From positions 884-64,883 of the forward strand of contig JAFRRK010000052.1 in assembly GCA_017428115.1 (NCBI GenBank): a stretch of DNA of 64,000 bases, in the 5' to 3' direction. Positions 2,828 to 48,400 of this stretch are shown here, one piece after another. Each line of letters begins with the position of its first letter. The stretch's first letter is position 1. Under the pieces are notes generated by a model. That model was not told where the DNA came from. It worked only from the letters and a program-made list of their open reading frames with translations, and did not search any database. This stretch comes from Bacteroidales bacterium. GTDB taxonomy: Bacteria > Bacteroidota > Bacteroidia > Bacteroidales > P3. The translations under genes were made by a program, and so were the position numbers.

Positions 2828-3739
2828 TTATTCTTCATCATTCCCATACTTGTCCAACATTGCCTTTATCTCTTCTTTCATCTCATCCCGTAGTGATTCG
2901 GGTTTCAGCACCTCCACCCTGCTGCCCAATGAGAGTATCTTCTGTTTAAAGTCAAAGGTCGGGCGCACACGAACCGAGAAGACCGAGTATTCCTCATTCC
3001 GTCTCAGTTCCAGTTGGGAGTGATGAAGAGGGAGCGACCGCAGATAGTTGGCCTGAAAAGCATCCACTTTTATCCAAACACTTTCGACGTTCACGTCATC
3101 CCCAAGAATGATGCCATAGCTGTCTTTAAACATCTCCTCCACATCGAAATCGGGGTCTCTCGTGTATGTCTCCTCTTGGATTTCAATATTGCTAATCCTA
3201 TCCAGCGCAAAGATATGATGCGGCATATCCTCAGTGTACTTGCCGACTACGTACCAGCGACGTTCAAACATCTTCAACGCATGGGGTCGGAAGTCGGTGT
3301 AGTGCGTTACATTGTCGCGCCAGTATGCGCCATAGTCGAACCTCATCATCCGCAACTCCTTCATGGCCTGGAGTATGGCGGGCAGTGGGTCGGTGTGACT
3401 CTCTTCTATGGCGATATATTGTGCCAACTCTTGGCTGTCCATCAGAATCCGGTTCACAGCAATAGAGTTGAGCATCCACTGACGGAAATAGCCGTTCTTG
3501 CCGCTGTCGGCTATACGATAACGGTACACGCCGCCCGACACGTAACATTCAATTTCTATTCCGAAAATATCCTTTATCTCCTCGCGGTGACGATGGAATG
3601 TGCGGTCAGAATAAAGGCGACCACCATTAATATCGTCATTGAAATAATAAGCATCGGCAATCTGCTGGAGCGTCAACCCCACATTGCCCGCCTTCATCAC
3701 AGTATCGACAAGCCAGATATATTTCTTCAAGGGTGTCAT
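2828..3739 (-). CDS. WYL-domain transcriptional regulator (wHTH-WYL-WCX architecture, BrxR/CapW-like)
   Basis: The ORF 2828..3940 is trimmed to the internal ATG at 3739 (MTPLKKYIWLVDTV...). The N-terminal HTH-like segment is LTLQQIADAYY. The central region ...ALKMFERRWYVVGKY...IFALDRI is typical of WYL domains. Length is about 303 aa. Confidence 0.8.
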   Translation of the reverse strand: MTPLKKYIWLVDTVMKAGNVGLTLQQIADAYYFNDDINGGRLYSDRTFHRHREEIKDIFGIEIECYVSGGVYRYRIADSGKNGYFRQWMLNSIAVNRILMDSQELAQYIAIEESHTDPLPAILQAMKELRMMRFDYGAYWRDNVTHYTDFRPHALKMFERRWYVVGKYTEDMPHHIFALDRISNIEIQEETYTRDPDFDVEEMFKDSYGIILGDDVNVESVWIKVDAFQANYLRSLPLHHSQLELRRNEEYSVFSVRVRPTFDFKQKILSLGSRVEVLKPESLRDEMKEEIKAMLDKYGNDEE

Positions 3740-3755
3740 AGGTTGTTCTTGTTGA

Positions 3756-4079
3756 TTAAAAAAAATGAAATCGACATAGAGACTTGCCAGCAATTGCACC
3801 ATGTTGAGTGGTATGTACAAATTTTGCGACAACCACTTTACCTTGCCTTCCGCCTTCAGTTTGAACTTGTGCAATTTTTGCACAGGTTGCCTCCCGTTCC
3901 AACTCTTCTGCCTTGTAGATATTGTTGATATGACGAACAATAGAAGTTCTGTCAGTCAGGAAAAGCTCTGCCATCTGTGCTTGTGTCATCCACACAGTTT
4001 CATTCTCAAACCTCACGTCAATCTGTGTGTTGCCATCGGCAGTCTGGTAGATGATTATCTTGTCATTAACGTTCTCCAT
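3756..4079 (-). pseudogene. RhuM-family (virulence protein RhuM-like) N-terminal stub
   Basis: The first ~79 aa (MENVNDKIIIYQTADGNTQIDVRFENETVWMTQAQMAELF...IAQVQTEGGR) match the N-terminus I recognise from ~330-aa RhuM-family proteins. The remainder is unrelated sequence and the ORF stops at 107 aa. Confidence 0.6.
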
Positions 4080-4501: not shown

Positions 4502-6400
4502 TTAATATGGTGTATTGATGTCATTGTCTTCAACGCGTAAATTGCGCATTATAAACTCGCGACGTTCTGGAGTATTCTCGCCCATATAGAATGAGAGAAC
4601 GCTTTGAGTGTCGAAGTCTTCTGGAAGTACTACAGGGTCGAGTCGCATGTCTTTGCCTATAAAAGTCTTAAACTCCTCAGGGGATATTTCTCCAAGCCCC
4701 TTGAATCGGGTAATCTCAGCATTGGGAGTATTTTGGATAGCTACGATGCGCTCTTCATTGGTATAACAATAAGTATTCTTTTGCTTGTTACGTACACGGA
4801 AAAGAGGAGTCTGTAAGATGAATACATGGCCTGTCCGAATGAGCTCTGGATAAAAACGAAGGAAGAATGTGAGCAAGAGAAGCCGGATATGCATACCATC
4901 AACATCGGCATCAGTGGCTATAACAACTCTATTATATCGTAAATTCTCAATACCGTCATAAACGGCAAGAGCATTGTGCAGGAGAAGAAGTTCCTTGTTG
5001 TTGAAAATATCCTCTATGGTTTTCAGATTATAGGTATTCTTGGTTTTCCCACGTAAAGAGAAAACTGCCTGAGTTTTGACATCACGGCTTTGTGTGATAG
5101 ACCCTGAGGCCGATTCACCTTCAGTAATGAAGATGGTACTTTCCAAACGTAGGGTGTGATGGGTGTTGTAATGTATGTGGCAGTCGCGTAGCTTGTTGTT
5201 ATTTAGAGCGACTCTTTTACTATTATCTTTTGCAACCCTTTTAATATCCGAAATTTGCTTACGTTCCTTCTCGTTGGCGTTGATTTTTTGAAGGAGTGCA
5301 TTAGCTGTCTCGTTGTGAATATGAAGATAGTTATCAAGTTGGCGTTTGAGAACATCATACACATAGGTTTTTAACAGAGGACTGTCGTTGCTCCCGTCAA
5401 CCTTGTTGGGTTCGAGACGTGTGGAACCTAATTTGGTTTTAGTTTGTGCCTCAAATACGGGTTCTTGTATACGTATACATAAGGCACAGACGAGACCTTG
5501 ACGGATGACCTCAGGTGAGTAGTCTTTCTTAATAAAATCTTTCACTACACGGGCATAAGCCTCTCGGAAGGCACTCTGGTGGGTACCTCCCTCGGTAGTA
5601 TGCTGTCCGTTAACAAACGAATAGTAATAATCGTTACTTTGGCCATTGATATGAGTGAAGGCGGCTTCAAAGTTGTCCTCCTTGATGTGAATGATGGGAT
5701 AGAGGGATTTCGATTGAAGGTTGTTCTCCAACAAGTCGAGTAGGCCGTTCTTTGAGTAATAGCGCCGACCATTATAGTAAATAGTGAGACCGCTGTTAAG
5801 ATAACAATAATACCAGATACGCCTTTCAATATGCTCCTCAACAAAGTGATAGTCGCCAAATAGTTTTCGGTCAGGGATGAATTCAACAAGTGTTCCAGAT
5901 TCGGTATTCGTGTCGGGAACGATGCCGCTGTCACTGACAAGATTGCCATCAGCGAATTGTGCGCAGCGACACATACCATCTCTGAACGACTGCACTTTGA
6001 AATAACTACTGAGGGCATTTACCGCTTTGATACCTACTCCATTCAAACCAATAGACTTTTTAAAAACCTTGCTGTCATATCTGGCCCCTGTATTGAGCTT
6101 TGAGATTGCATCAACAAGTTTGCCTAATGGAATACCACGACCATAGTCACGGATGCTAACACACCTCTCGTTAAGGTTAACTGTAATATCTATCTTCTTT
6201 CCGAATCCTGATGTAAACTCGTCAATAGAATTGTCCATCACCTCCTTGATTAGTACATAGATGCCGTCGTCATGGGATGAACCGTCACCGAGCTTGCCTA
6301 TATACATACCTGGACGGAGACGAATATGTTCCATATCTTCAAGGTGAATAATGGTATCGTCATTATACGCAATTGCGGAGAGGCTGTCAGTCTGTTCCAT
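4502..6400 (-). CDS. parE: type IIA DNA topoisomerase subunit B, ParE (topo IV B)-type, all catalytic motifs intact
   Basis: Start trimmed to ATG 6400 (MEQTDSL...). Motifs: HIRLRPGMYIGKLGDG (ParE-type N-terminus), GHKL N-box EVMDNSIDE, G1 DYGRGIP, G2 GLNGVGIKAVNALS, QTK loop EAQTKTKLGS, TOPRIM ITEGESASGS and ATDADVDGMHIRLLLLTFF, and KGLGEISPEEF. Confidence 0.9.
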   Translation of the reverse strand: MEQTDSLSAIAYNDDTIIHLEDMEHIRLRPGMYIGKLGDGSSHDDGIYVLIKEVMDNSIDEFTSGFGKKIDITVNLNERCVSIRDYGRGIPLGKLVDAISKLNTGARYDSKVFKKSIGLNGVGIKAVNALSSYFKVQSFRDGMCRCAQFADGNLVSDSGIVPDTNTESGTLVEFIPDRKLFGDYHFVEEHIERRIWYYCYLNSGLTIYYNGRRYYSKNGLLDLLENNLQSKSLYPIIHIKEDNFEAAFTHINGQSNDYYYSFVNGQHTTEGGTHQSAFREAYARVVKDFIKKDYSPEVIRQGLVCALCIRIQEPVFEAQTKTKLGSTRLEPNKVDGSNDSPLLKTYVYDVLKRQLDNYLHIHNETANALLQKINANEKERKQISDIKRVAKDNSKRVALNNNKLRDCHIHYNTHHTLRLESTIFITEGESASGSITQSRDVKTQAVFSLRGKTKNTYNLKTIEDIFNNKELLLLHNALAVYDGIENLRYNRVVIATDADVDGMHIRLLLLTFFLRFYPELIRTGHVFILQTPLFRVRNKQKNTYCYTNEERIVAIQNTPNAEITRFKGLGEISPEEFKTFIGKDMRLDPVVLPEDFDTQSVLSFYMGENTPERREFIMRNLRVEDNDINTPY

Positions 6401-6434
6401 AATGATGTTGCTATTGTTTTTATATTTCAAAATG

Positions 6435-6442
6435 CAAAAATA
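6435..6442 (-). promoter_or_regulatory. -7 box (TATTTTTG on the minus strand) of the ParE-like operon
   Basis: TAnnTTTG match about 35 nt upstream of ATG 6400. Confidence 0.5.
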
Positions 6443-6449
6443 CAACAAA

Positions 6450-6472
6450 GGTGTGCCAAATCATGACACACC
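6450..6472 (-). promoter_or_regulatory. island operator copy 1 (23-bp inverted repeat)
   Basis: Plus strand reads GGTGTGCCAAATCATGACACACC. The half-sites GGTGTGCCA and TGACACACC are near-perfect reverse complements. The motif sits 7 nt upstream of the -7 box. Confidence 0.6.
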
Positions 6473-6563
6473 TCTATTTTATTTTCAATAGACTTGAAAC
6501 CTTACAGTGAATATATTCTCACAAGCAATTCTTGTTTTCCATTTTTTTTGTTCTTTCGAGATG

Positions 6564-6571
6564 CAAAAGTA
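6564..6571 (-). promoter_or_regulatory. second -7 box (TACTTTTG on the minus strand), part of a duplicated promoter module
   Basis: TAnnTTTG match with operator copy 2 located 7 nt upstream. Confidence 0.4.
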
Positions 6572-6578
6572 TAAAACG

Positions 6579-6601
6579 GGAGTGCCACATCGTAACGCAC
6601 C
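6579..6601 (-). promoter_or_regulatory. island operator copy 2
   Basis: Plus strand reads GGAGTGCCACATCGTAACGCACC. The architecture and the 7-nt spacing to a -7 box match copy 1. Confidence 0.55.
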
Positions 6602-6617
6602 TTAAAAATATACCTAA

Positions 6618-7052
6618 TTAGTACATGCTGGCTATTCTTTCTTCAACTAAAGACACTATTGATTCAGCATATTTTTTATGGATATAATCTATAATAGACG
6701 TAGTTTTGGTTCTCGGATTTGTCGTCCATATCAAATCTGCATCTAATAGATTAGTTATCCTTTCGACCTCATTACAGGTTGATCCAGTTGTTCGTGAAGC
6801 ACATACGATTATTTTACAACCATTATCTACTAACTCATTCAGTGTTTCTAACATCCTTGAGTTTGGGTCTCCTTGGCTTTCCACTCCAACGAGAACACCA
6901 TTAACATCCACAATACCAAGAATATCTCCATCATCTCTCAACACCTGAACTTTTCTTGTGTATTTCTTTGAAAGAACATTGTACACTTCTCTAACGGACG
7001 AGGACTTTCCTTGCTGGGCAGAACCCCTATTTACAATTACGAGTGGCTTCAT
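6618..7052 (-). CDS. small (144 aa) P-loop-like protein
   Basis: A Walker-A-like GSAQQGKSS lies at aa 10-18 right after a beta-strand-like MKPLVIVN. A hydrophobic strand KIIVCASR follows later. The start is 11 nt after the upstream gene's stop. Confidence 0.55.
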   Translation of the reverse strand: MKPLVIVNRGSAQQGKSSSVREVYNVLSKKYTRKVQVLRDDGDILGIVDVNGVLVGVESQGDPNSRMLETLNELVDNGCKIIVCASRTTGSTCNEVERITNLLDADLIWTTNPRTKTTSIIDYIHKKYAESIVSLVEERIASMY

Positions 7053-7063
7053 GCTGCTGATTT

Positions 7064-7783
7064 TTATATGATTATTTTTTTATAGAAATCATGAACTGCA
7101 TTTATCATGCCTTGGTCATCATGAGATCGAGGAGATGGGTGATAGTCATCTATTAATAACAGATTGCTCTCTTGGCAAAAATGGCACCATTCATTGTACT
7201 GCAAGAAAACCATATCTGAATAAATATCTTTTGCTATATTCAGCAGGGTTCCACTTCCTCCTCCACATACAATAACATTGGGATTTAATATATTTCTAAT
7301 TTGTTCAACGATGAAATTCCTATCTCTTTCGTAATATGACTGTATAGTACTATTATATACTTTACTTCCGCCTGATATTTTCTTAACATTTACAATTGCC
7401 ATAGGATATGGCAATGCTAACTTAAAATATTCTTCACGAGTTTTATCAAAAACTGGTAGATGATTGGCATCTACTTCGTTCAACGCCCAAATACATTTAA
7501 TCATCGTCATAAAAGTTCGATGGACATTTATCTCATCTGTATCATAGAACGCCCACTCTCGGTAATCACAACCAGGATTTCCATTCGTGTCTTTTACGAG
7601 AAATAACACTTTTCGCTTTGTATTAACCCATTTGTCAACTTCCGCATATTCATCTTTGCAATTCGGGTCTCTATAATATATAAGTCCATCAAAGCAGAAT
7701 ATTTTTTGCATCTCTTCGGAATATGAATTCTTCCAACGAATGCATAATTCTGTTTCCTTTTTATCAAATTCCTTTCCATTCAT
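7064..7783 (-). CDS. hypothetical protein with SMUG-like uracil-DNA-glycosylase-superfamily motifs
   Basis: VLFLVKDTNGNPG (aa 59-71) resembles UDG motif A (SMUG1 GMNPG). HPSPRS (aa 215-220, nt 7124-7141) resembles UDG motif B (HPSPRN or HPSPLS). The intervening strand NVIVCGGGSG fits the UDG alpha/beta topology. Confidence 0.6.
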   Translation of the reverse strand: MNGKEFDKKETELCIRWKNSYSEEMQKIFCFDGLIYYRDPNCKDEYAEVDKWVNTKRKVLFLVKDTNGNPGCDYREWAFYDTDEINVHRTFMTMIKCIWALNEVDANHLPVFDKTREEYFKLALPYPMAIVNVKKISGGSKVYNSTIQSYYERDRNFIVEQIRNILNPNVIVCGGGSGTLLNIAKDIYSDMVFLQYNEWCHFCQESNLLLIDDYHPSPRSHDDQGMINAVHDFYKKIII

Positions 7784-7803
7784 ATCTCATACTTGTTTTT
7801 AAA

Positions 7804-8163
7804 TCAATAATGATATTTCGTTGGGGGAATAATTATGCATGCTTCATTCTGATAAAAGAAACTACCTGATATCTTCTTGTTCTTAGGGGGTAATCCACAA
7901 CCTTTCTCATAAAAGGTCTCTGTTCGTATATCCCATGCAATTTCGGCATTTTCATCTTTAGTCAAAAAAAGAACCCGCAATGGACACTCGTTCCATAGTG
8001 TATTTTCTATACCACTCTCTTTCCGTCTCACTGCTTCATACTCATCAATGTAAAACACTCCTTTATTCATTATACCATCGAGAGCAAAACTATTGTCTTC
8101 TATCATTAACGACTTACGCCATTCTTCGAGAATTCTCTTATTCTCTGCAACGTAACCTTTCAC
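7804..8163 (-). pseudogene. decayed or truncated paralog of the SMUG-like gene
   Basis: GTG start, 119 aa. It aligns by eye with 7064..7783: FALDGIM vs FCFDGLI, RVLFLTKDENA vs KVLFLVKDTNG, KKISGSF vs KKISGGS. It lacks the NPG loop and the entire HPSP half. Confidence 0.45.
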
Positions 8164-8182
8164 ATAAACATATTATTGCTTA

Positions 8183-8205
8183 ATTGTGCCACATCGTGAC
8201 ACTCC
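8183..8205 (-). promoter_or_regulatory. island operator copy 3 (different promoter context)
   Basis: Plus strand reads ATTGTGCCACATCGTGACACTCC. Here a T-run plus GCA lies upstream of the operator, and only a degenerate TAATATGT lies 7 nt downstream. Confidence 0.5.
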
Positions 8206-8232
8206 TGCAAAAAAAATATTGATTGTTTTCTA

Positions 8233-9453
8233 TTACACTAGGCGTTCTACAACTTTCTTGAATATTTCGGTAGTCTTAACATAGTCATATTGATTATCAA
8301 CATAATTTACATATACCCATCGTAGTTTTTCTGTGTGACTATAAAGAATGTCTTTTGTTTTTTGTGTTAGTAAATCTGTATCTAACAATTGGCCGTGATC
8401 TAAATATTCCACTTGACAATATAATGTTGAATAATGTGAACTATCCTTGTCAATACTTACTAACACTTCCTTTCCATCAAAAGGAACTATTATTCTAACG
8501 TTATTATCGGACTCTTTCTGGTCTTTACGTATAGATGGATACTTCTCAATAATATCCATCTCTGCTTTTCGGATTATACCAAATCCAATCTCATCAAACA
8601 TTGACTGAATCTCTTTTTGGAATTCGATAATATTTAATAAGTTTGCTTTAATCTTAGACAAACACTCGTTATCATTTTGGCAATCTTTAAGATTGAAGTA
8701 ATTTAAGAGATAATTTTTTAATTCCATATTCACTGTTTTTTGAATTGTTCGTAAATCAAATAATCCTTCCAAATAATCAACATATTGTTGGACGGCATTT
8801 ATCAAATATGTGTCTTTATACTTTATGTTAGGCAAAATATTATTTTTTAGCCATGGAAGAATGTTCTCTTTGAATGACAAATTGATGAATCTGTCCTCGA
8901 AAAGCTGTTGGTAATCTCCCCACGATTGAGAATTTGGTTCACTTCCTGTTTGAGAAAGATAGACAACAAAGATATCATTCTGATTAAAAAGACATTCTTT
9001 TGTCTTATCAATATATCTTGACAGCTGAGCCTCTTGATCCTGAGCATTGTATATTTTGTTTTCAATAATTATTGCATAATTGCCGACCTTATCCCTTACC
9101 CACAAATCAATACGAGCTTCTTCTTGTGTGATTTTTGGCTTTTTAATATTAATCCTATCAAATTGCCTCGATTTGCTCTTTGACTTTATATAGTCAACAA
9201 ATGATTGAAGAATCTCCCATTCTTCTCGTTCATTGACAAATTGAAGAAGTTTCAGAAGAATTCGACTATGTCCATTCTCATTAATATGGAGTTCGTCTAT
9301 CACATTGATGTGATACGGCAACTTCAGTTTCTCCTCCATATAACGTTTATGGAATTCTCTTGAGAAATTAAGAAGTTTTTTATATTCAATATCAACTGCA
9401 TGTATAATATTTTCATACAGTTTTAAGGCGGATTCTATTTCTTTTTCCGACAT
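8233..9453 (-). CDS. PD-(D/E)xK nuclease family protein
   Basis: RIDLWVRD ... YAIIIENKIYN supplies the D...(D/E)xK signature (D-x(n)-E-N-K). 406 aa and AT-rich. Confidence 0.7.
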   Translation of the reverse strand: MSEKEIESALKLYENIIHAVDIEYKKLLNFSREFHKRYMEEKLKLPYHINVIDELHINENGHSRILLKLLQFVNEREEWEILQSFVDYIKSKSKSRQFDRINIKKPKITQEEARIDLWVRDKVGNYAIIIENKIYNAQDQEAQLSRYIDKTKECLFNQNDIFVVYLSQTGSEPNSQSWGDYQQLFEDRFINLSFKENILPWLKNNILPNIKYKDTYLINAVQQYVDYLEGLFDLRTIQKTVNMELKNYLLNYFNLKDCQNDNECLSKIKANLLNIIEFQKEIQSMFDEIGFGIIRKAEMDIIEKYPSIRKDQKESDNNVRIIVPFDGKEVLVSIDKDSSHYSTLYCQVEYLDHGQLLDTDLLTQKTKDILYSHTEKLRWVYVNYVDNQYDYVKTTEIFKKVVERLV

Positions 9454-9476
9454 GATATAATATGCTTTTCGTGTTG

Positions 9477-9484
9477 CAAAGATA
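9477..9484 (-). promoter_or_regulatory. -7 box (TATCTTTG on the minus strand) upstream of the PD-(D/E)xK gene, without an operator
   Basis: Exact TAnnTTTG match about 25 nt upstream of ATG 9453. Confidence 0.4.
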
Positions 9485-9524
9485 CAAACATTTTTTATAT
9501 CTGCGCATTATATATCAAATAATT

Positions 9525-11207
9525 TCAAGATAAAAAACCTATTCGTCTGGTCTTGGCATTGTTAATCCGCTCGTTGTCACAATGGGGAGTAAGTAGGTCG
9601 ATTGTGGGAACATTGTTGCCATGCAGGATGGCATCAATGGCATAGTGGCGGGCGATATTCTCTATCTGGCCACCGCTAAAGTCGTACCGCTCGGCCAAAA
9701 GGGTGGCATCAGTGTCGCTTAGGTCGGGCAGCAGTTCATGCCAGATGGCGGTGCGGGCTTCCACTGTGGGTTTGTCGAAGCGTATCTTATAGAGGAAACG
9801 CCGCTCGAAAGCATTGTCCATATTCTGAGCCAGATTGGTGGTGGCAATCAGTATTCCGTCGAGGGTCTCCATCTCCTGTAAGATGATGTTCTGAAGCGAG
9901 TTCTCCATTTTGTCCACAGCACGTTCCGCACCCTCCTGTCGCTTGCCGATGATGGCATCTGCCTCGTTGAAGAGGAGGATGGGCACAAGGGTACTCTCTT
10001 TGACCCGCTGGCGGTAGGTATCGAAGAGAGCTTTCATGTTCTTCTCACTCTCACCGACCCACTTGCTCTTCATCTCGGAGATGTCCACCTGCATAATGTC
10101 GCGACCTGTGCGTCGAGCCAATTGCATCACCGTCTCGGTCTTACCCGTGCCAGGAGCCCCATAGAAGAGACAGGTGAGTCCACAACGGAAACCCTGCTCT
10201 TGCAGACGGGCATGAATGTCGCTGTAGTTCTTCTCCTCAAGCAGACGGGCAAGGTCGTCAATACGATGGGTGATGTCGTCGGAGTAGAACAAGGTACGGG
10301 GCTTGATGTCGGAAGCGATAATCATATTGCGCAGCGTCCTCTTCCCTTCGAGTGAGGGAAGTTGCAACTCGTCAAGCAAGTCTCGCTTCGCCTTCATTGT
10401 AAGCCTATAATGCTCCTTGTCCCCCATCCCATCGTTGTTGCTATATTCTATCAAACCCAATCGTTGAAGAAAGTTGACACCCTGCTCCAATTCCGTCCTT
10501 ATCATACGCATATCCTTCTTGCTATATATGCAATCAATATCATGAAAGCCAATACAATCATCGTTGTTGTTCACAAACAGATGACAGAACATGATAAGCA
10601 GAACAAATTCTTTGTCAAATTCTTTGTCACATATTTCGGGGATGAGGTTCTGCACCTTTTGTACGAACAACAGCTGCTGGTTATGGTGAAACAGCATCTT
10701 GAAACGTTCTACGGCAGCAGCAATATCCATCTCATCATCGTCCACCCTGTCAACAATGTCTGCAAACTCATTGAACAACTCATGGCAGGTAAGCCCGGAA
10801 CAATCCTTGGGCGTGTAGGGCTTATTCACTTTGAAAGCTTCCACCACATCAATAGGCACACGGTAGGAAACAGAACTCGACGAACGGCTACGAACAATCA
10901 AACCTCGGCGTACCAACTCGTCAATATCATTCATATAACGGATCATCCGCGTGGTACGGCAGCCCGTATATTTTGCAATGTCGCTTGCCTCGATTCTTGA
11001 GTCATCACTTTGGTCAAGAAACAACGCCATCATCACGCTCTGCTCTTTTGTGAGGCTGAGCTTGTCCGACAGATGCTTAATAAAACGCGCTGCCTTGCAA
11101 TAAAACTCTGGCGACAACTGCGATTCTTTTGCCAATTCCACGATGTTCTCGACTGCCGAAAGTAAGTCTAACTTTCTTTTCCCTTGTGTTTTACTTGCTG
11201 TTTCCAT
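9525..11207 (-). CDS. classical-clade AAA+ ATPase with an N-terminal region of about 340 aa carrying two wHTH-like modules
   Basis: Start trimmed to ATG 11207 (METASKTQGK...). Walker A is FYGAPGTGKTE. Walker B region is ILLFNEADAI (Asn where Asp is usual). The SRH/Arg-finger region is NLAQNMDNAFERRF. wHTH-like segments are IAKYTGCRTTRMIRYMNDIDELVRRGLIV and GVNFLQRLGLIEY. Confidence 0.85.
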   Translation of the reverse strand: METASKTQGKRKLDLLSAVENIVELAKESQLSPEFYCKAARFIKHLSDKLSLTKEQSVMMALFLDQSDDSRIEASDIAKYTGCRTTRMIRYMNDIDELVRRGLIVRSRSSSSVSYRVPIDVVEAFKVNKPYTPKDCSGLTCHELFNEFADIVDRVDDDEMDIAAAVERFKMLFHHNQQLLFVQKVQNLIPEICDKEFDKEFVLLIMFCHLFVNNNDDCIGFHDIDCIYSKKDMRMIRTELEQGVNFLQRLGLIEYSNNDGMGDKEHYRLTMKAKRDLLDELQLPSLEGKRTLRNMIIASDIKPRTLFYSDDITHRIDDLARLLEEKNYSDIHARLQEQGFRCGLTCLFYGAPGTGKTETVMQLARRTGRDIMQVDISEMKSKWVGESEKNMKALFDTYRQRVKESTLVPILLFNEADAIIGKRQEGAERAVDKMENSLQNIILQEMETLDGILIATTNLAQNMDNAFERRFLYKIRFDKPTVEARTAIWHELLPDLSDTDATLLAERYDFSGGQIENIARHYAIDAILHGNNVPTIDLLTPHCDNERINNAKTRRIGFLS

Positions 11208-11233
11208 ATCAATAATCTTTTTATATCCGACTG

Positions 11234-11241
11234 CAAAAATA
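11234..11241 (-). promoter_or_regulatory. -7 box (TATTTTTG on the minus strand) of the AAA+ gene
   Basis: TAnnTTTG match about 27 nt upstream of ATG 11207. Confidence 0.5.
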
Positions 11242-11248
11242 CGACAAT

Positions 11249-11271
11249 GGTATGCCATTTCGTGACACACC
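11249..11271 (-). promoter_or_regulatory. island operator copy 4
   Basis: Plus strand reads GGTATGCCATTTCGTGACACACC, located 7 nt upstream of the -7 box as in copies 1 and 2. Confidence 0.6.
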
Positions 11272-11363
11272 CAATAATTTATTTATTATTAAAAAAAAAG
11301 ATAACTTATATGCTTTGTCGGCAAAACGGCCAAGCATTCAGGGATTCTTATAGTTCTTAATTG

Positions 11364-41758: not shown

Positions 41759-41809
41759 GTATCCAATAAAAAAGGCAGGAACGTAATGCCCTGCCTTTAA
41801 ACAATCTTG

Positions 41810-41882
41810 AGCGACAGACGGGGTTCGAACCCGCGACCTGCGGCTTGGGAAGCCGCCGCTCTGCCAACTGAGCTACTGTCGC
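41810..41882 (-). tRNA. tRNA-Gly (anticodon CCC)
   Basis: The minus strand reads GCGACAGTAGCTCAGTTGGCAGAGCGGCGGCTTCCCAAGCCGCAGGTCGCGGGTTCGAACCCCGTCTGTCGCT and folds by hand into a cloverleaf. Acceptor stem is GCGACAG/CTGTCGC. Anticodon stem is GCGGC/GCCGC. The anticodon loop TTCCCAA gives CCC. T-loop is TTCGAAC. Confidence 0.9.
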
Positions 41883-41969: not shown

Positions 41970-44243
41970 TTATCTGCGACGCTCGCCACCACCACTGCGG
42001 CGACGTTCACCGTCACGGCGGGGACCACGATCGCCATCGCGGCGAGGACCTCGGTCACCATCACGGCGAGGACCACGGTCGCCTTCGCGACGCGGGCCAC
42101 GTGCCGGTTTCTCTTCCTCGTAGCCTTCTGGCTTGGGGAGGAGAGCCTTGCGGCTGAGCTTAATCTTGCCGGTCTTCTCATCTATGTTGATGACCTTCAC
42201 CTGGAACTCGTCACCCTCTTCAATCAAACCTTCAAGCGTCTCAGTACGGCCCCAGTCATACTCGCTGATGTGCATCAAGCCCTCTTTGCCTGGCAGGAAC
42301 TCGAGGAAGGCGCCAAACTCTACAATGCTCACCACCTTGGCATCATACACCTGCCCCACCTCGGGAACAGTGCAAATCTCCTTAATCCACTTAATGGCGG
42401 CTGCAATATCGTCCTTGTTCTGCGAAGCCACATCCACAATGCCGAACTCGCCCACCTCTTCGATATTGATGATGGTGTTGGTCTCGGACTGAATCTTCTG
42501 TATAACCTCACCACCCTTGCCAATAACAGCACCGATAAAGTCCTTAGGGATCTGGATCTGTTCAATACGGGGCACAAAGTCCTTATAGTCGGCACGGGGT
42601 TCGGGAATGGTTTCAAGAATCTTGTCGAGGATGTAGAGCCTACCCTGACGAGCCTGCTCAAGGGCCTTGGCCAACACATCGTAGCTCAGGCCGTCCACCT
42701 TGATATCCATCTGGCAGGCAGTGATACCGTCGCGGGTGCCACACACCTTAAAGTCCATGTCGCCCAAGTGGTCCTCATCGCCCAAGATGTCGCTAAGCAC
42801 AGCCCACTTGTCGCCCTTGCTGATAAGGCCCATGGCAATGCCCGCCACAGGCTTGCGAAGTCTCACACCCGCATCCATCAATGCCATGCAGCCGGCACAC
42901 ACAGTGGCCATCGACGAAGAGCCGTTGCTCTCGAGGATATCAGACACCACACGGATGGTATAGGGACAATCCGTCTCGCTGGGGAGCACCTCCTTGAGGG
43001 CGCGCCAAGCCAAATGGCCGTGACCCACCTCGCGGCGGCTGGTGCTGCCGCTGCGCTTCACCTCGCCAGTGGCAAACCCGGGGAAATTGTAGTGCAGCAA
43101 AAAGCGGCGCATGCCCTCTATCACCGCACCGTCAATCTTCTGCTCATCGAGCTTAGTGCCCAAGGTGCAGGTAGCGAGCGACTGCGTCTCGCCACGGGTG
43201 AAGATGGCACTGCCGTGGGCCGAAGGCAGATAGTCGGTTTCGCACCAAATGGGGCGAATCTCGTCAAGCTGACGGCCGTCCAAACGGGTACGCTCTGCCA
43301 GCACCATGTCGCGCATAGCCTCGCGCTCGGTGTCGTGGTAGTAACGGTCAATCATAAACTTAATATCATCGGTGAGGGTCTCCTCGGTATAGTTGGCATC
43401 GATAAACTCCTGCTTGATAGCTTCAAAGCCCTCTTCGCGCTGATGCTTGTTGGCAATGCCCTGCTTGGAGAAGTCGTAGCACTTCTGGTACACAGCGTCG
43501 TGGATGCGCTGGCGCAGCTCCTCGTCGTTCACCTCGTGGCAGTACTCGCGTTTCTCGGTCTTACCAGTCTCGACGGTAAGCTCGTCCAGCACGCGGCACT
43601 GTATCTTGATAGCCTCGTGGGCAGCCTTCAACGCGCCCAGCATCACATCCTCGCTCACCTCCTTCATCTCGCCCTCCACCATCATGATATTGTCGGCGGT
43701 GGCGGCAACAATAAGGTCGAGGTCGGCACGCTCAATGTCCTCCATGGGGGTATTGATGACATACTCGCCGTCGAGATACGACACGCGCACCTCTGAGACA
43801 GGGCCGTTAAACGGTATGTCGGACACTGCCAGAGCGGAAGCAGCAGCCAGTGCGGCCAGCTGGTCGGGCATAGTCTCGTGGTCGCCCGAGATGAGGGTTA
43901 TCTGCACCTGCACCTCGGCATGGAAGTTGTCGGGGAAGAGGGGACGCAGTGCACGGTCCACCAAGCGGGCAATCAAAATCTCATGCTCCGAGGGGCGTGC
44001 CTCGCGCTTGAAGAAGCCACCAGGGAAACGCCCCATGGCGGCATACTTCTCTTGGTAATCAACGGTGAGGGGCATGAAATCGACGTTCTCGCCCACCTCT
44101 TTCTTAGCGCATACGGTGGCAAGAAGCATCGTGTCGTTCATCCGTACCACGGCAGAGCCGTCGGCCTGTTTGGCCAGTTTTCCAGTTTCAATTTCAATCA
44201 TGCGGCCGTCGCCGAGATCAAACTTCTTTGTGATAATGTTCAT
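41970..44243 (-). CDS. pnp: polyribonucleotide nucleotidyltransferase (PNPase) with an Arg/Gly/Asp repeat tail
   Basis: Start trimmed to [14 protein letters not shown]. It has two RNase PH domains, KH ([11 protein letters not shown]) and S1 ([20 protein letters not shown]), followed by a ~50-aa GPRRDGDR-repeat extension. Confidence 0.92.
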
Positions 44244-44425
44244 TTGTTCCTTTATTGTTTCTTTGTTTCCGCTACGTGTCGCACCGTGCGGCACGCATTT
44301 GCCTAGCATAAACACCTCTATGCAAAGGCGATATAATGATTATTAAAAGCTCTTTCAAAAAAGCCTCCCCAGAGAACCTAGGGAGGCCAACCATAACCAA
44401 ATAAATTATGAAAAACTATTACTTT

Positions 44426-44695
44426 CTACTTTCTCAAGTTAAGCTTCTTGATAAGGGCACGATAGCGCTCAATATCAATAGCCTTCAAATAATCGAGCTG
44501 ACGGCGGCGCTTGCCAACCAGACCGACCAATGCGCGCTCGCTTACTTGGTCTTTCTTATTCTTCTTCATCAGCTCAGTCAGATGCTGGATTCTGTATGTG
44601 AACAGGGCCACCTGCGCCTCAACCGAACCCGTATCTTGGGCGTTTTTACCATACTCGGCGAAAATCTCTTCTTTTTTCTCTTTTGTCAGATACAT
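44426..44695 (-). CDS. rpsO: 30S ribosomal protein S15
   Basis: MYLTKEKKEEIFAEYG...GSVEAQVALFTYRIQHLTEL signature. Confidence 0.92.
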   Translation of the reverse strand: MYLTKEKKEEIFAEYGKNAQDTGSVEAQVALFTYRIQHLTELMKKNKKDQVSERALVGLVGKRRRQLDYLKAIDIERYRALIKKLNLRK

Positions 44696-44962
44696 AACTA
44701 TTTATACTGTTTTTTATCGTTCTTTATCCTTTCGAATTCGGCTGCAAAATTACAACTTTTTTTTCATCCACAAACATTTTTTCGCAAAAAACATTCAATT
44801 TAACTCTTATTAAGAAAGTTCAACCGCCCAACAGCCCACCTTCCACCCCTCCCCAGCGCACATTGCCATTGAAATACAACTGCAACTAGCCATCAAGCCC
44901 ACCTGCCACTCCGCCCCCCTCTTGGTGCCCTTACACTACCGCCCACACTCCCTTCCGTGAAG

Positions 44963-44993
44963 CGAAGGCACGACGAAACCACGACGAAGCCAC
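44963..44993 (-). repeat. weak partial copy D of the tandem 11-mer core of the repeat family
   Basis: CGAAGGCACGA CGAAACCACGA CGAAGCCAC resembles 30244-30270. The flanks are not clearly alignable. Confidence 0.3.
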
Positions 44994-45212
44994 AACGCCC
45001 CACCATGCCATTTACGACACCGCAACACCTCCCCAAACCTCCACACCTGTCCACTCCGACCCTGTTCGCCCTCCCCACTACGGCAACCCAGCAGCACACC
45101 AACAGCAATCGAGTAGCCAGTGGGCACCGGCAGGGGCGACGCAAAGCACGAGCGAGAAGAAAAAATGACGGCCATGAGTACACAAAAAAATGCCCAAATG
45201 CATTTTTTTTGC

Positions 45213-45220
45213 TATATTTG
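45213..45220 (+). promoter_or_regulatory. -7 box (TATATTTG) at the GC-rich/AT-rich junction, about 260 nt upstream of the 1609-aa gene
   Basis: TAnnTTTG match preceded by T8. Composition switches to AT-rich immediately downstream. Confidence 0.4.
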
Positions 45221-45481
45221 CAGTTGGTAAGCAATAGTGCCGCCGAAACATAAAACACATATAACAAAACAGATAGAACAGATAGAAATAATTAAATACA
45301 TATAATAAAGGCGTTTTCGCTTTTCTTGCCACAACTGAAATCTCGACAATTTCATTTTCATTACACAAGAGAAGGGAACGTTCATGGTTTCCGTGAACTT
45401 TTCTTGTTTGTAATGATAGGTAGTCGAGAACCTCAGTTGTGAACAAAAAGGTTTCACGGTTTTTATTACAAAGTCACAAGT

Positions 45482-48400
45482 ATGAGCAGATTGACAAAAG
45501 AACAACAAGAATTATTCGACAATCTTCACAAGGACAGGCTTGAAGATTATAAAGTATTTAGCAAAAAAGATTATGGTGGACTATTTAAAAGCGTAGTAGA
45601 CAAATATCCAGAATCAGCACATTTTATCTATGAATTACTGCAAAATGCGGATGACGCAAATGCAACAAAGGTTAATATCTTACTGAAGCATGATTGTTTG
45701 TTGTTCAAACACAATGGCACTAAACACTTTAATGTAACCCCCCTTAACTCAAACATCGTTGGAGATATTAATGCTATTACAGGCATAGGGAATTCAACAA
45801 AGATAGATACACAAAACAAGATAGGCAAGTTCGGCGTTGGATTTAAATCAGTGTTTCAATATACGGACACTCCCGAGATATATGACGACACATATAGTTT
45901 TAAAATAGAGAATTATATCATACCAACACTTATTGAAGAAGATCATATTGAGCGTAAAAGAGGAGAAACTCTTTTTGTCTTCCACTTTCGAAATTCAAAT
46001 AACAATTATTTCGAGATAAAGAATAGATTAGAGAAACTTCAAAATCCGATACTATTCCTGCATAATCTTAAGAAAATTGTATGGCAAATCGAGGAATCGA
46101 ATGGACTTATAAGCCAAGAATACATTATTGAAAAAACGTTACGGCAAAAGGAGGTTTTCGATGACATTCAAATGGAACTATATGACATTTTCGACCACAA
46201 AGGATTAAAAACCATCTATTTGTTTAGTCAGAATGTCATTGTTACAAATGACAACAAAAAGACAGAACACCCTATATGCGTTGGCTTCTTTTACAATGAA
46301 GAAAAAAAGAAATTAGTAACAGCAAACCAAAACAGGAAAGTTTTTTGTTTCTTTCCCACAAAGGAATCGTTCAAAACCTGCTTCATCTTACATGCTCCAT
46401 TCTTGCTTACAGACAATAGACAGAATTTAAAGCCTAAAGAAGAAATTAATAAGGACTTTGTTAACCACTTGTCTAAGCTTGCAGCTCAATCAGTTGTAAT
46501 CCTAAAGGACTACGGAATAAAACAAAACAATCTGCTTATCAATGAGAATATCACTGAAATATTGCCACAATACGATGACTCCGACAGGCTGGGCAGTGAC
46601 TATGAATACAAAAGAATGTTTGAAGAATCCTTTAAAGAAATAATGCAAAAGAAAGCCTTATTACTATCTAGAAACAAGAAATACAAATATGTAAACAATT
46701 CCTATACATCGCCAATGAGTGTATATGAATTAGTAGAACAAAAGCAACTAGAACAACTTAAGGGATACAAAGACATTGATTTCTTAGAGTGGGAATTAAT
46801 GCAAAACATTAAGAAATGCAAAGCAGGCTGTGACTATTTTGAGGAACTATCAGAATACACTATTGAGAACTTTGCAAACGACATTACCGCAGACTTCATG
46901 GAGAAACAAAACAAAGCATGGATTTTGAAATTCTACACGTTTGTCCGTGAAGAAGCACGCAAATATTGGGTAATCTCCAATCAAACAAAAGGAAGTTCAC
47001 TTGCTTTCAGGAGTGCCCCCATCATAAAAAATCAACGAGGAGAATGGGTTGCGCCATTTAAAGATATAAGAACACCTAATGTATTTCTCCCCATTGGTAA
47101 AGGGGCTAATAATGAATATAATTTTGTTCATCGCGATTATCTATCGGAAGAAATGGCGAAAAAGCTATTTGATGCATTTGAATTTAAAAAGCCTGACACA
47201 TACGACTATATAAGGAATGTAGTCTTAAACAAATATAATGAAAATGCGAATGACATTCCAGACGAAATCATTAAAGATGACTTCAATACCTTACTAAACT
47301 ATTATAGAGAAATACGAGGTACGGAAAAAGAGAAACAATACATTCAAGACTTACGGAGCCAATACTATCTTAGAAGTAAAGACGGCCTTCTTCACCATTC
47401 GAATGAAATCTTCGTTAATAACGAGGAACTTTCAAAATATTTTGAGGGTAATTATGATGCTGACTTTTTTGATTCTTCATTTTATCAAGATTCGTTTAAA
47501 GGATTTCACAATGTTGTTGTGATGGAATTTCTTGATAAAATAATCACAAGGAAAGTACCTCATATTGAAAAAATAAAAGTTAACTATTACTCAGATTATC
47601 AATTACCAAAAGCATATAAGAAGGTCCTCCCATCATATAAATATTACAATGAGTTTATCATCCAGGACTTTGAGCTATTCGGATTCGAGACAGCTTGCAA
47701 AAAAGGTAACATAACAAAAAAGGTATCTGCTTTCCTATGGAACGACGTTGTGTGGCGTTATTCGAAAGAAACAAAATGTACTATTTCTGCGAGCAACACA
47801 CGAAGAAGCACCTACGACAACTATACGACAGACACTAAATTCAGAAGGGATTTATTGGAATTCAAATGGCTGTACAACAGCAAAAATAAAATAGTAAGCT
47901 CAAGAGAAGTTTACCAAGAAGACTTGTGCGTAGAATACGATTTGACAAATGGAGTAAAGGAGTTTATAGAGATAAGAAAAAGAGTAGAAAATCTTAGAGA
48001 GAAGTATAAAGCAACTGAAGAAGAGCAAGAAAGATATGCCCTTGGAACTGAAATAGAAACAAAATATGGAGAACTTACAAAAGAAGAAATGCTTAAAGTA
48101 CTAGATAAAGCATTAGAGGACAAACGAATACAAAAATCAAAAAGTGCTAATAAAGAGCACCTCCTTGAAATGCCTAATAATGGCCAGGATACAGCATCAG
48201 CAGACCATCTAAGTAATACAGAAGAAGACATCAACGAGAAACTTGAGAGAAAATGGGAAGAGAAAAAGAACACCCATGTCAACAAACCCAATTCTTCAAC
48301 AAATCCTAATGGTTCAACCTCGCTTAACATTGAACATACCAAAATTGGTTCAGATTCCAATAACGAACCTTTTTTTGTAGATTCCATCTCACAAAAAATA

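Follow-up and report, generated by a model that had tools for sequence, protein, structure and literature searches.

The 64,000-nucleotide stretch of Bacteroidales chromosome analysed here (the window) contains, within a segment of low GC content, a gene for a 239-residue protein whose predicted structure and family profiles place it in the uracil-DNA glycosylase (UDG) superfamily. The reading that accounts best for the data, and to which we would give somewhat better than an even chance, is that this protein is a stand-alone anti-phage DNA glycosylase of the kind represented by the Brig enzymes, carried as cargo of a low-GC Bacteroidales defence island. It is preferred because of the UDG fold, the agreement of the family profiles and the defence or mobile setting; the same three lines of evidence support the defensive role that had been suggested for a UDG-like protein by an earlier sequence-only reading of this DNA. 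The gene is the middle one of three consecutive open reading frames (ORFs), all of which were found at the coordinates given in that reading:

7804..8163, minus strand: 119-residue ORF, GTG start; 5' remnant of a second UDG-like gene
7064..7783, minus strand: 239-residue ORF, ATG start; divergent UDG-superfamily protein, predicted DNA glycosylase
6618..7052, minus strand: 144-residue ORF, ATG start, in the same orientation; small α/β protein with a Walker-A motif

The 144-residue gene lies downstream, and the gap of 11 nt between the stop codon of the 239-residue ORF and its start codon had also been given correctly.

Fold and conserved residues of the 239-residue protein

The AlphaFold2 model of the 239-residue protein, built on 33 homologues, has a pLDDT of 91.3 and a pTM of 0.91 and contains four core strands (residues 59–63, 128–132, 170–174 and 208–213). 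A Foldseek search of the PDB with this model returned UDG-superfamily proteins (TDG, family-4 UDG, UNG and SMUG1) at all of ranks 1–28. Human TDG is the top match (E = 5 × 10−4, probability 1.0, with TM-scores of 0.42–0.49), and the others include the family-4 UDG 4ZBY and bacterial, herpesvirus and human UNG. Matches to the model in BFVD are phage polymerase-fused UDG domains, herpesvirus UDGs and a crAssphage UDG. At the sequence level, the profile of an alignment of 81 diverse relatives (A2), across which all conservation counts given below were made, matched the Sulfolobus tokodaii family-4 UDG 4zbx (E = 1.7 × 10−6) and Thermotoga maritima TM0511 (E = 0.024), with both alignments in register through strand β3 (IIVC.G) and the segment [YWF]-H-P-[SA]. 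PF03167 was matched by 37 of the 81 relatives (best E = 3.6 × 10−7); these matches do not reach the gathering score and mostly span the C-terminal half. A phmmer search of the PDB with one relative (P0140), whose Pfam UDG match reaches the N-terminal motif, found nothing.

Structure prediction, fold search and family profiles thus agree in supporting a UDG α/β fold and membership of the UDG superfamily, as the sequence-only reading had proposed. Its more specific label of a SMUG-like protein is not supported, since SMUG1 appears only at rank 19 of the Foldseek matches (E = 1.6 × 10−2), after TDG and family 4, and its motif A is not conserved in the family; TDG/MUG comes first by structure and family 4 first by sequence.

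The residues conserved throughout the family are K64-[D/E]65-x-N67, D73-x-R75, N132-x-K-K, C173 and H215-P-S. Three of these elements follow core strands of the fold or end them and are located in the window as follows:

7583..7594, minus strand: K64-D65-T66-N67, predicted motif-A equivalent, directly after β1 (59–63)
7379..7390, minus strand: N132-V-K134-K135, at the end of β2 (128–132)
7133..7141, minus strand: H215-P216-S217, motif-B equivalent, after the last core strand

Directly after β1, Lys64 is present in 80 of the 81 relatives, an aspartate or glutamate at position 65 in all 81 and Asn67 in 61, many relatives reading K-D-P-N here, and the next loop contributes Asp73 (80/81) and Arg75 (77/81). 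Asn132 at the end of β2 is found in 69 relatives and replaced by glutamate in ten more (Asn or Glu in 79/81), and is followed by Lys134 (79/81), Lys135 (80/81) and Gly138 (77/81). Strand β3 carries Cys173 (76/81) and Cys174 (50/81). The motif-B segment (His215 80/81, Pro216 64/81, Ser217 61/81) aligns to YHPAA and FHPS of the family-4 UDGs 4zbx and TM0511. An N-terminal extension of about 55 residues contains an essentially invariant Asp32-Gly33 pair. Because no conserved set of four cysteines is present (only Cys173 and Cys174), the protein is not a family-4 Fe–S enzyme.

The peptides on which the sequence-only reading was built, VLFLVKDTNGNPG (residues 59–71) and HPSPRS (residues 215–220, nt 7124–7141) in the 239-residue protein and GSAQQGKSS in the 144-residue protein, were all located where it had placed them. 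It had named the absence of a UDG fold or a lack of motif conservation as grounds for rejection; the fold was recovered, and of the two motifs the histidine is conserved as predicted, whereas GNPG, which had been compared with the GMNPG of SMUG1, is not (Asn69 in 27/81 and Pro70 in 15/81 relatives). What is conserved in its place is Lys64 together with Asp or Glu65 directly after β1.

In UDGs the catalytic residue stands just before the proline of the loop that follows β1, being the aspartate of GQDPY in family 1 and the asparagine of G[IM]NPG in families 2 and 3, and in UNG a base-reading asparagine lies at the end of β2 and the motif-B histidine after the last core strand. On the order of the motifs and the predicted secondary structure, Asp/Glu65 would therefore occupy the canonical catalytic position, Asn132 the position of the base-reading asparagine of UNG and His215 that of the motif-B histidine, a constellation (Asp, Asn, His) that reads as UNG-like rather than SMUG-like. 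By analogy, such a set points to a pyrimidine of the uracil or thymine type. The tyrosine of the UNG motif GQDPY shuts out 5-substituted bases; since Asn67 stands where UNG has this tyrosine, a 5-substituted base is a reasonable guess for the substrate.

The protein would then most likely act as a monofunctional DNA glycosylase that flips a non-canonical base, probably a modified pyrimidine, out of invading DNA into a pocket in which Asp65 (after β1) would activate water, Asn132 (at the end of β2) would recognize the base and His215 (in motif B) would stabilize the leaving group. Cleavage of the N-glycosidic bond would leave abasic sites that block phage replication, as for Brig1, Brig2 and Brig3. 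Concrete positions for mutation are Asp65, Asn132 and His215 and the family-specific Lys64, Asp73, Arg75 and Lys134/Lys135.

Distribution of the family and its possible role

A set of 58 close homologues of the 239-residue protein was found, and their profile retrieved 1,920 cluster representatives (50% identity, E ≤ 1 × 10−3) from a library of 1.8 billion proteins. The family is found in Bacteroidota, Vibrio (Proteobacteria) and Enterococcus (Firmicutes), the membership of the Vibrio and Enterococcus proteins being given by hhalign at 99.5% and 99.3%, respectively, and the family is not covered by any Pfam, NCBIfam or PADLOC model. A search of phage genomes gave no match to the family. On a Vibrio alginolyticus plasmid the gene lies between NgoPII and HaeIII endonucleases on one side and an AHH toxin on the other, on Enterococcus faecium plasmids it adjoins an AlwI restriction–modification system, and a mobilizable element of Bacteroides finegoldii carries it (detected by tblastn only).

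For the analysis of neighbourhoods, 126 loci from genomes, metagenomes and plasmids were grouped into 42 clusters at 90% identity, of which 22 are flanked by 1.5 kb or more on each side; the metagenome loci were gathered with alignment A1, so that the sample is biased to Bacteroidota. A recurrent small neighbour is a DUF6140 gene (PF19637, 70–90 residues), which abuts the UDG-like gene at a distance of 0–108 nt in ten of the 22 clusters, its side, upstream or downstream, varying between loci (loci L001, L005, L010–L017, L020, L024, L059, L061, L062, L064, L069, L071, L111 and L113). DUF6140 is absent from the 64-kb window, and a literature search found no mention of it; it is possibly a small partner or inhibitor of the UDG-like protein. 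A WYL-WCX regulator lies within 4 kb of the UDG-like gene in eight of the 22 clusters, and a more sensitive search added further WYL regulators, including divergently oriented ones. An ADP-ribosylglycohydrolase gene (PF03747) is the immediate upstream neighbour of the UDG-like gene in one human-gut cluster of 13 loci (L087 4867–5859 and 12 more loci) and in L017 (232–1191), and such a gene also occurs near it in an Alistipes contig. Other neighbours are GmrSD, an EcoRI-type methylase, DUF1016, RelE, an overlapping PLD nuclease, RhuM-Fic, DUF932 and AAA_14/DUF4143, and one relative adjoins a Y-family polymerase gene. On qualitative inspection of the loci, the members appear as lone cargo genes beside restriction, GmrSD, toxin–antitoxin and mobile-element genes.

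Some variations on this arrangement were also seen. In L009, the ORF of the PLD-family (Nuc-like) nuclease (8665–9228) and the UDG-like gene overlap at the 3' end of the latter. In L044 (2960–4936), a 658-residue fusion (P0163) carries the UDG-like domain at residues 401–655 behind 400 N-terminal residues that have no Pfam match, and its gene adjoins an LHH toxin and an AAA_14/DUF4143 gene. L005 contains a second and far more distant UDG-superfamily gene (9683–10504, 273 residues), in the same island as the family member and 4 kb downstream from it; its product gives a weak match to PF03167 and an E value of 2.4 × 10−5 against the family profile.

Anti-phage glycosylases have been found among a variety of UDG-like proteins (bioRxiv 10.1101/2025.10.29.685425). 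Brig1 has a UDG fold and acts on α-glucosyl-5-hydroxymethylcytosine (Hossain et al., 2024, PMC11078745), Brig2 is a UDG-like anti-phage protein acting on hypermodified thymidines (Getz et al., bioRxiv 10.1101/2025.10.29.685425), and Brig3, with weak UDG homology, acts on 5-hydroxymethylcytosine and has an ADP-ribosylglycohydrolase in its locus (bioRxiv 10.64898/2026.02.25.707755). The 239-residue protein is probably a member of this known class and possibly represents a new clade within it.

Among these enzymes, the present family is most readily compared with Brig2, which likewise combines a UDG fold with very low identity to canonical UDGs and is a single gene in A/T-rich regions associated with mobile elements or defence. 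The more than 500 Brig2 homologues occur in Proteobacteria, Firmicutes and Bacteroidetes (bioRxiv 10.1101/2025.10.29.685425), the same three phyla as the family described here. Because this phylum spread matches, identity of the two families is a live possibility, although the present family, compared with Brig2 by description only, appears larger at 1,920 clusters.

The resemblance to Brig1 lies in the superfamily fold, with the S. tokodaii family-4 UDG (4ZBY) as a leading relative, in the location in defence islands, in the ADP-ribosylglycohydrolase neighbours of some loci (PMC11078745) and in a weak local K-[IL]-[ST]-G-G similarity after β2. However, Brig1 has GLNPG (with Asn) after β1 and lacks a motif-B histidine, whereas the present family has K-[D/E]-x-N and an invariant histidine, and the homologues of Brig1 are few (42) and mostly actinobacterial (PMC11078745). 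By sequence the family is not that of Brig1 (hhalign probability 0.15). With Brig3 it shares the ADP-ribosylglycohydrolase neighbour (bioRxiv 10.64898/2026.02.25.707755), but the key Brig3 residues Asn50, Asp127 and Asn225 have no obvious counterpart.

As to the canonical enzymes, family 4 (4ZBX/4ZBY and TM0511) is the only one reached by sequence, at the E value of 1.7 × 10−6 quoted above, and shares the 'IIV..G' of β3, the '[YF]HP[SA]' of β4 and an N-x-x-K pattern after β2; it differs in having four cysteines for a [4Fe–4S] cluster and GE[AG]PG where the present family has K-[D/E]-x-N, and the family's N-terminal extension of about 55 residues is additional. TDG/MUG (family 2) supplies the best structural match, TDG, and SMUG1 (family 3) an HPSPR-type motif B, but the G[IM]NPG motif A of both is absent from the family.

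Several observations weigh against assignment of the 239-residue protein as a Brig-like glycosylase. As a single query it gave no match in Pfam, NCBIfam, PADLOC, PHROGs or the PDB sequences, so that a family profile was needed to reach the UDGs, and the sequence likeness to canonical UDGs is confined to the C-terminal half. The TM-scores are modest. The equivalence to motif A follows from secondary-structure position and not from superposition, and the charged residues Lys64, Asp73, Arg75, Lys134 and Lys135 are without counterpart in known UDGs and could reflect a different substrate. Profile–profile comparison by hhalign was not significant for Brig1 (probability 0.15, E = 0.4, using a machine-read copy of the sequence in its supplement) or for the enterobacterial MUG profile, the latter from an alignment of low diversity (the best 120 matches, all at least 71% identical). 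Catalysis, substrate and defence role are inferred for all members of the family, and in the one published screen six of the seven UDG-like candidates tested failed to protect against the phages used (bioRxiv 10.1101/2025.10.29.685425).

If the protein is active, a very large unannotated branch of about 1,900 clusters, spanning gut and rumen Bacteroidota, Vibrio and Enterococcus, would be added to the base-excising immune enzymes, a class recognized only recently, and its substrate could reveal DNA modifications used by gut Bacteroidales phages. A more elaborate version is rather unlikely in our estimation: the family would form a large, as yet unnamed anti-phage glycosylase clade apart from Brig1–3, with an UNG-like Asp/Asn/His core, a new basic and acidic pocket (Lys64, Asp73-x-Arg75 and Lys134-Lys135) for recognition of a hypermodified pyrimidine from Bacteroidales phages, regulation by a WYL sensor acting on the shared inverted-repeat operator and, in most relatives, DUF6140 as a small paired inhibitor or specificity partner.

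Four other explanations were weighed. The recurrence of small neighbours raises the question of whether the UDG-fold protein is a DNA-damaging toxin or abortive-infection effector, with DUF6140 in most relatives, and possibly the 144-residue protein here, as a Ugi-like inhibitor or antitoxin and WYL controlling expression. Small protein inhibitors of UDGs, namely Ugi and p56, are established; DUF6140 abuts the gene in the ten clusters noted above, the 144-residue gene stands where several relatives have DUF6140, and WYL regulators are directly upstream or divergent in many clusters. Nevertheless, many members have no small neighbour (those of B. finegoldii, Vibrio, Enterococcus and the largest human-gut clusters), DUF6140 changes sides between loci, and toxicity and binding are conjectural, making this explanation an improbable one.

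We regard as similarly improbable a UDG fold that is catalytically different or inactive, serving as a sensor of modified DNA, as an enzyme whose substrates are nucleotides or DNA carrying ADP-ribose or other adducts, or as counter-defence of a mobile element. The invariant Lys64, Asp73-x-Arg75, Lys134-Lys135 and Asp32-Gly33 are foreign to known UDG families, and both the recurrence beside ADP-ribosylglycohydrolase genes and the carriage on conjugative or mobilizable plasmids would suit such functions. The three canonical catalytic positions are, however, the most conserved in the family, which is not expected of an inactive scaffold, and all defence-island UDG-fold proteins characterized so far are glycosylases.

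A housekeeping repair glycosylase for uracil, mismatches or damaged bases, acting in place of Ung/Mug or in addition to it in particular lineages, would be consistent with the UDG fold and its UNG-like Asp/Asn/His set and with the relative that adjoins the Y-family polymerase gene. It is likewise improbable in view of the patchy distribution, the low-GC island, the carriage on plasmids and mobilizable elements, the differing neighbours of close relatives, the nuclease, restriction–modification and toxin–antitoxin genes around them and the truncated second copy that adjoins the 239-residue gene. The fourth explanation, an obligate system with the 144-residue protein, is taken up with that protein below.

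The 144- and 119-residue reading frames

The Walker-A-like motif noticed in the 144-residue protein by the sequence-only reading was borne out by alignment with homologues and by structure prediction:

7002..7025, minus strand: Walker-A-like G10-SAQQ-G15-K16-S17 of the 144-residue protein, from its sequence and the homologue alignment

The quoted peptide GSAQQGKSS corresponds to residues 10–18. The protein has 26 homologues, of which 23 were aligned with it, and in these 24 sequences Gly10, Gly15 and Lys16 are invariant and Ser17 is kept in at least 90%, giving a family-wide GxxxxGK[ST]; also kept are E58-S-Q-G-D-P-x-S-R and I-I-V-C-A-x-R-x-x-G-x-T. In the AlphaFold2 model (pLDDT 93) the glycine-rich loop lies between β1 (residues 4–9) and α1 (16–30), as in P-loop NTPases, and Glu58 or Asp43 could serve as Walker B. 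Foldseek matches are weak and mixed (E of about 7 × 10−3 and above), comprising EF-Tu, designed P-loop proteins, peptidyl-tRNA hydrolase and MTAN. Searches of Pfam, NCBIfam and the PDB sequences gave no match, the matches in the PDB being spurious ones to designed repeat proteins. A lead to SIS/phosphoheptose isomerases (PHROG 1238, E = 1.5 × 10−6) was rejected on an hhalign probability of 0.08 against Escherichia coli GmhA.

The sequence-only reading had taken this protein for an NTPase partner in a new two-gene variant. The 144-residue gene is beside the UDG-like gene in only one of the 22 adequately flanked clusters, which is the lineage of the window, and is missing beside UDG-like homologues at 72, 71 and 61% identity. 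Conversely, nine fetched loci with a 144-residue homologue outside this lineage contain no UDG-like gene, their settings being capsule loci, a position between PLD nuclease and GmrSD, and an AAA_15 island. The capsule settings (L027, L029 and L033) are Bacteroidales capsular-polysaccharide biosynthesis loci with the homologue inside them, and the PLD nuclease that flanks a homologue is in L031. The 144-residue protein is thus not a conserved partner of the UDG-like protein.

Of the explanations considered, the least probable is that glycosylase and NTPase together make up an obligate two-gene system of defence, the NTPase taking the part of sensor, loader or regulator, for although the genes are 11 nt apart on one strand, Walker A is invariant in the 144-residue family and the same gene order recurs in at least six places among 23 metagenome contigs, those contigs carry the identical 239-residue protein and are one lineage, and each gene is otherwise found without the other as described above. 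The exact 239-residue protein is also present as an annotated entry in a Bacteroidales metagenome-assembled genome. In the preferred explanation, a stand-alone Brig-like glycosylase, the 144-residue protein would be the product of an independently mobile small gene that is co-transcribed here by chance.

The 119-residue ORF is aligned end-to-end by the family hidden Markov model to positions 1–96 of 256 (E of about 1 × 10−24), confirming the homology that had been claimed for it. The description of it as lacking both catalytic motifs is only half correct, since the motif-A region (RVLFLTKDEN and DIR) is retained, whereas the β2, β3 and His motifs are missing with all else downstream. Among distant subfamily members it is most similar to P0164 (53% identity over 83 residues, E = 1 × 10−20), P0224 (49%) and P0199 (43%), compared with 31% identity over 61 residues (E = 2 × 10−4) to the adjacent 239-residue protein; the contigs of P0164 and P0224 are too short to inform on neighbourhood. 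Since the identity to distant relatives exceeds that to its neighbour, the ORF is read as a remnant of the 5' ~37% of an earlier member of a different subfamily and not as a tandem copy. The proposal of a tandem duplication with decay is therefore abandoned, as is the use of KKISGSF as a shared peptide, this segment and the KKISGGS of the 239-residue protein aligning to different family positions. A second UDG-like fragment beside a UDG-like gene was seen only in the lineage of the window among the 22 adequately flanked clusters. The rapid turnover that had been suggested is real for the island, but by replacement and truncation and not by duplication. An older family member, different from the present one, would have been cut down to its 5' end, the 119-residue ORF, and its promoter reused; the island would thus illustrate how one family member is truncated and another lands behind its promoter.

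The surrounding island and its repeated element

The GC content is 0.36 in positions 6001–10000, compared with about 0.48 in the flanks, which code for chromosomal functions (a CLC channel, LD-carboxypeptidase, M28 peptidase, SurE and LpxB). Other genes identified by searches of Pfam, PADLOC and NCBIfam are

9525..11270, minus strand: 581-residue AAA+ ATPase, its ATPase domain resembling that of IetA
8233..9453, minus strand: PD-(D/E)XK_4 nuclease-family protein (PF14281, 9 × 10−20; PADLOC candidate system PDC-S26, 1.2 × 10−36)
2828..3940, minus strand: WYL-WCX regulator (PF13280 and PF25583)

The PDC-S26-type gene and the AAA+ ATPase gene are both upstream of the three-ORF run on the same strand, and a defence or mobile island of low GC content is supported as the setting of the 239-residue gene. 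Homologues of the 581-residue ATPase occur beside WYL and UDG-like genes on two unrelated contigs (L022 276–1946 and L061 2610–4478), which hints at a recurring neighbourhood of AAA, WYL and UDG-like genes.

A 55-nt element is present in four minus-strand copies in this 5-kb island and consists of the inverted repeat GGTGTGTCAYGAnnTGGCACACC, a spacer of 8–10 nt and a −7 box, TAnnTTTG. The copies were obtained from a repeat-family search (D2), alignment and exact pattern matching:

11218..11278, minus strand: operator-like element with Bacteroidetes-type −7 box (the box read from the alignment), at the start of the AAA ATPase gene
8186..8212, minus strand: operator-like inverted repeat with degenerate −7 box, just upstream of the start of the 119-residue remnant
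6548..6608, minus strand: operator-like element with −7 box, just downstream of the 144-residue gene
6419..6479, minus strand: operator-like element with −7 box, upstream of a gyrB/parE-like gene

The core of 14 specified bases has three exact matches in the 64 kb, many more than chance would give. In related loci, the element stands ahead of an operon of small genes and WYL (L009) or follows closely after the UDG-like gene (L048–L050 and L052–L054). The WYL-WCX protein of the window is homologous to WYL proteins that stand beside UDG-like genes elsewhere, directly upstream in other loci. The element is probably the operator of the island's WYL-WCX regulator, its candidate binder, and may tie several unrelated defence genes to this one regulator. 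No −7 box was found between the remnant and the start of the 239-residue ORF, so that the 239- and 144-residue genes are probably transcribed from the promoter/operator region of the remnant.

The gyrB/parE-like gene (4502–6448, minus strand) codes for a type IIA topoisomerase B subunit scoring 394 bits against an NCBIfam cut-off of 740. It lies directly behind an operator/promoter element, two small ORFs and the WYL regulator being in line with it, and its position is taken by other genes in the syntenic relatives L008, L009 and L054; it may be either a housekeeping ParE or an island gene. A 107-residue ORF (3756–4079, minus strand), which has no Pfam match of its own, is homologous to the N-terminal part of a 331-residue RhuM-Fic protein in L009 (2 × 10−26) and looks like another truncated gene of the island. 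A second stretch of low GC content (44001–50000, 0.335–0.425) lies beside a segment of 0.578 GC and about 2 kb from a tRNA-Gly gene (41809–41882), and may be another island.

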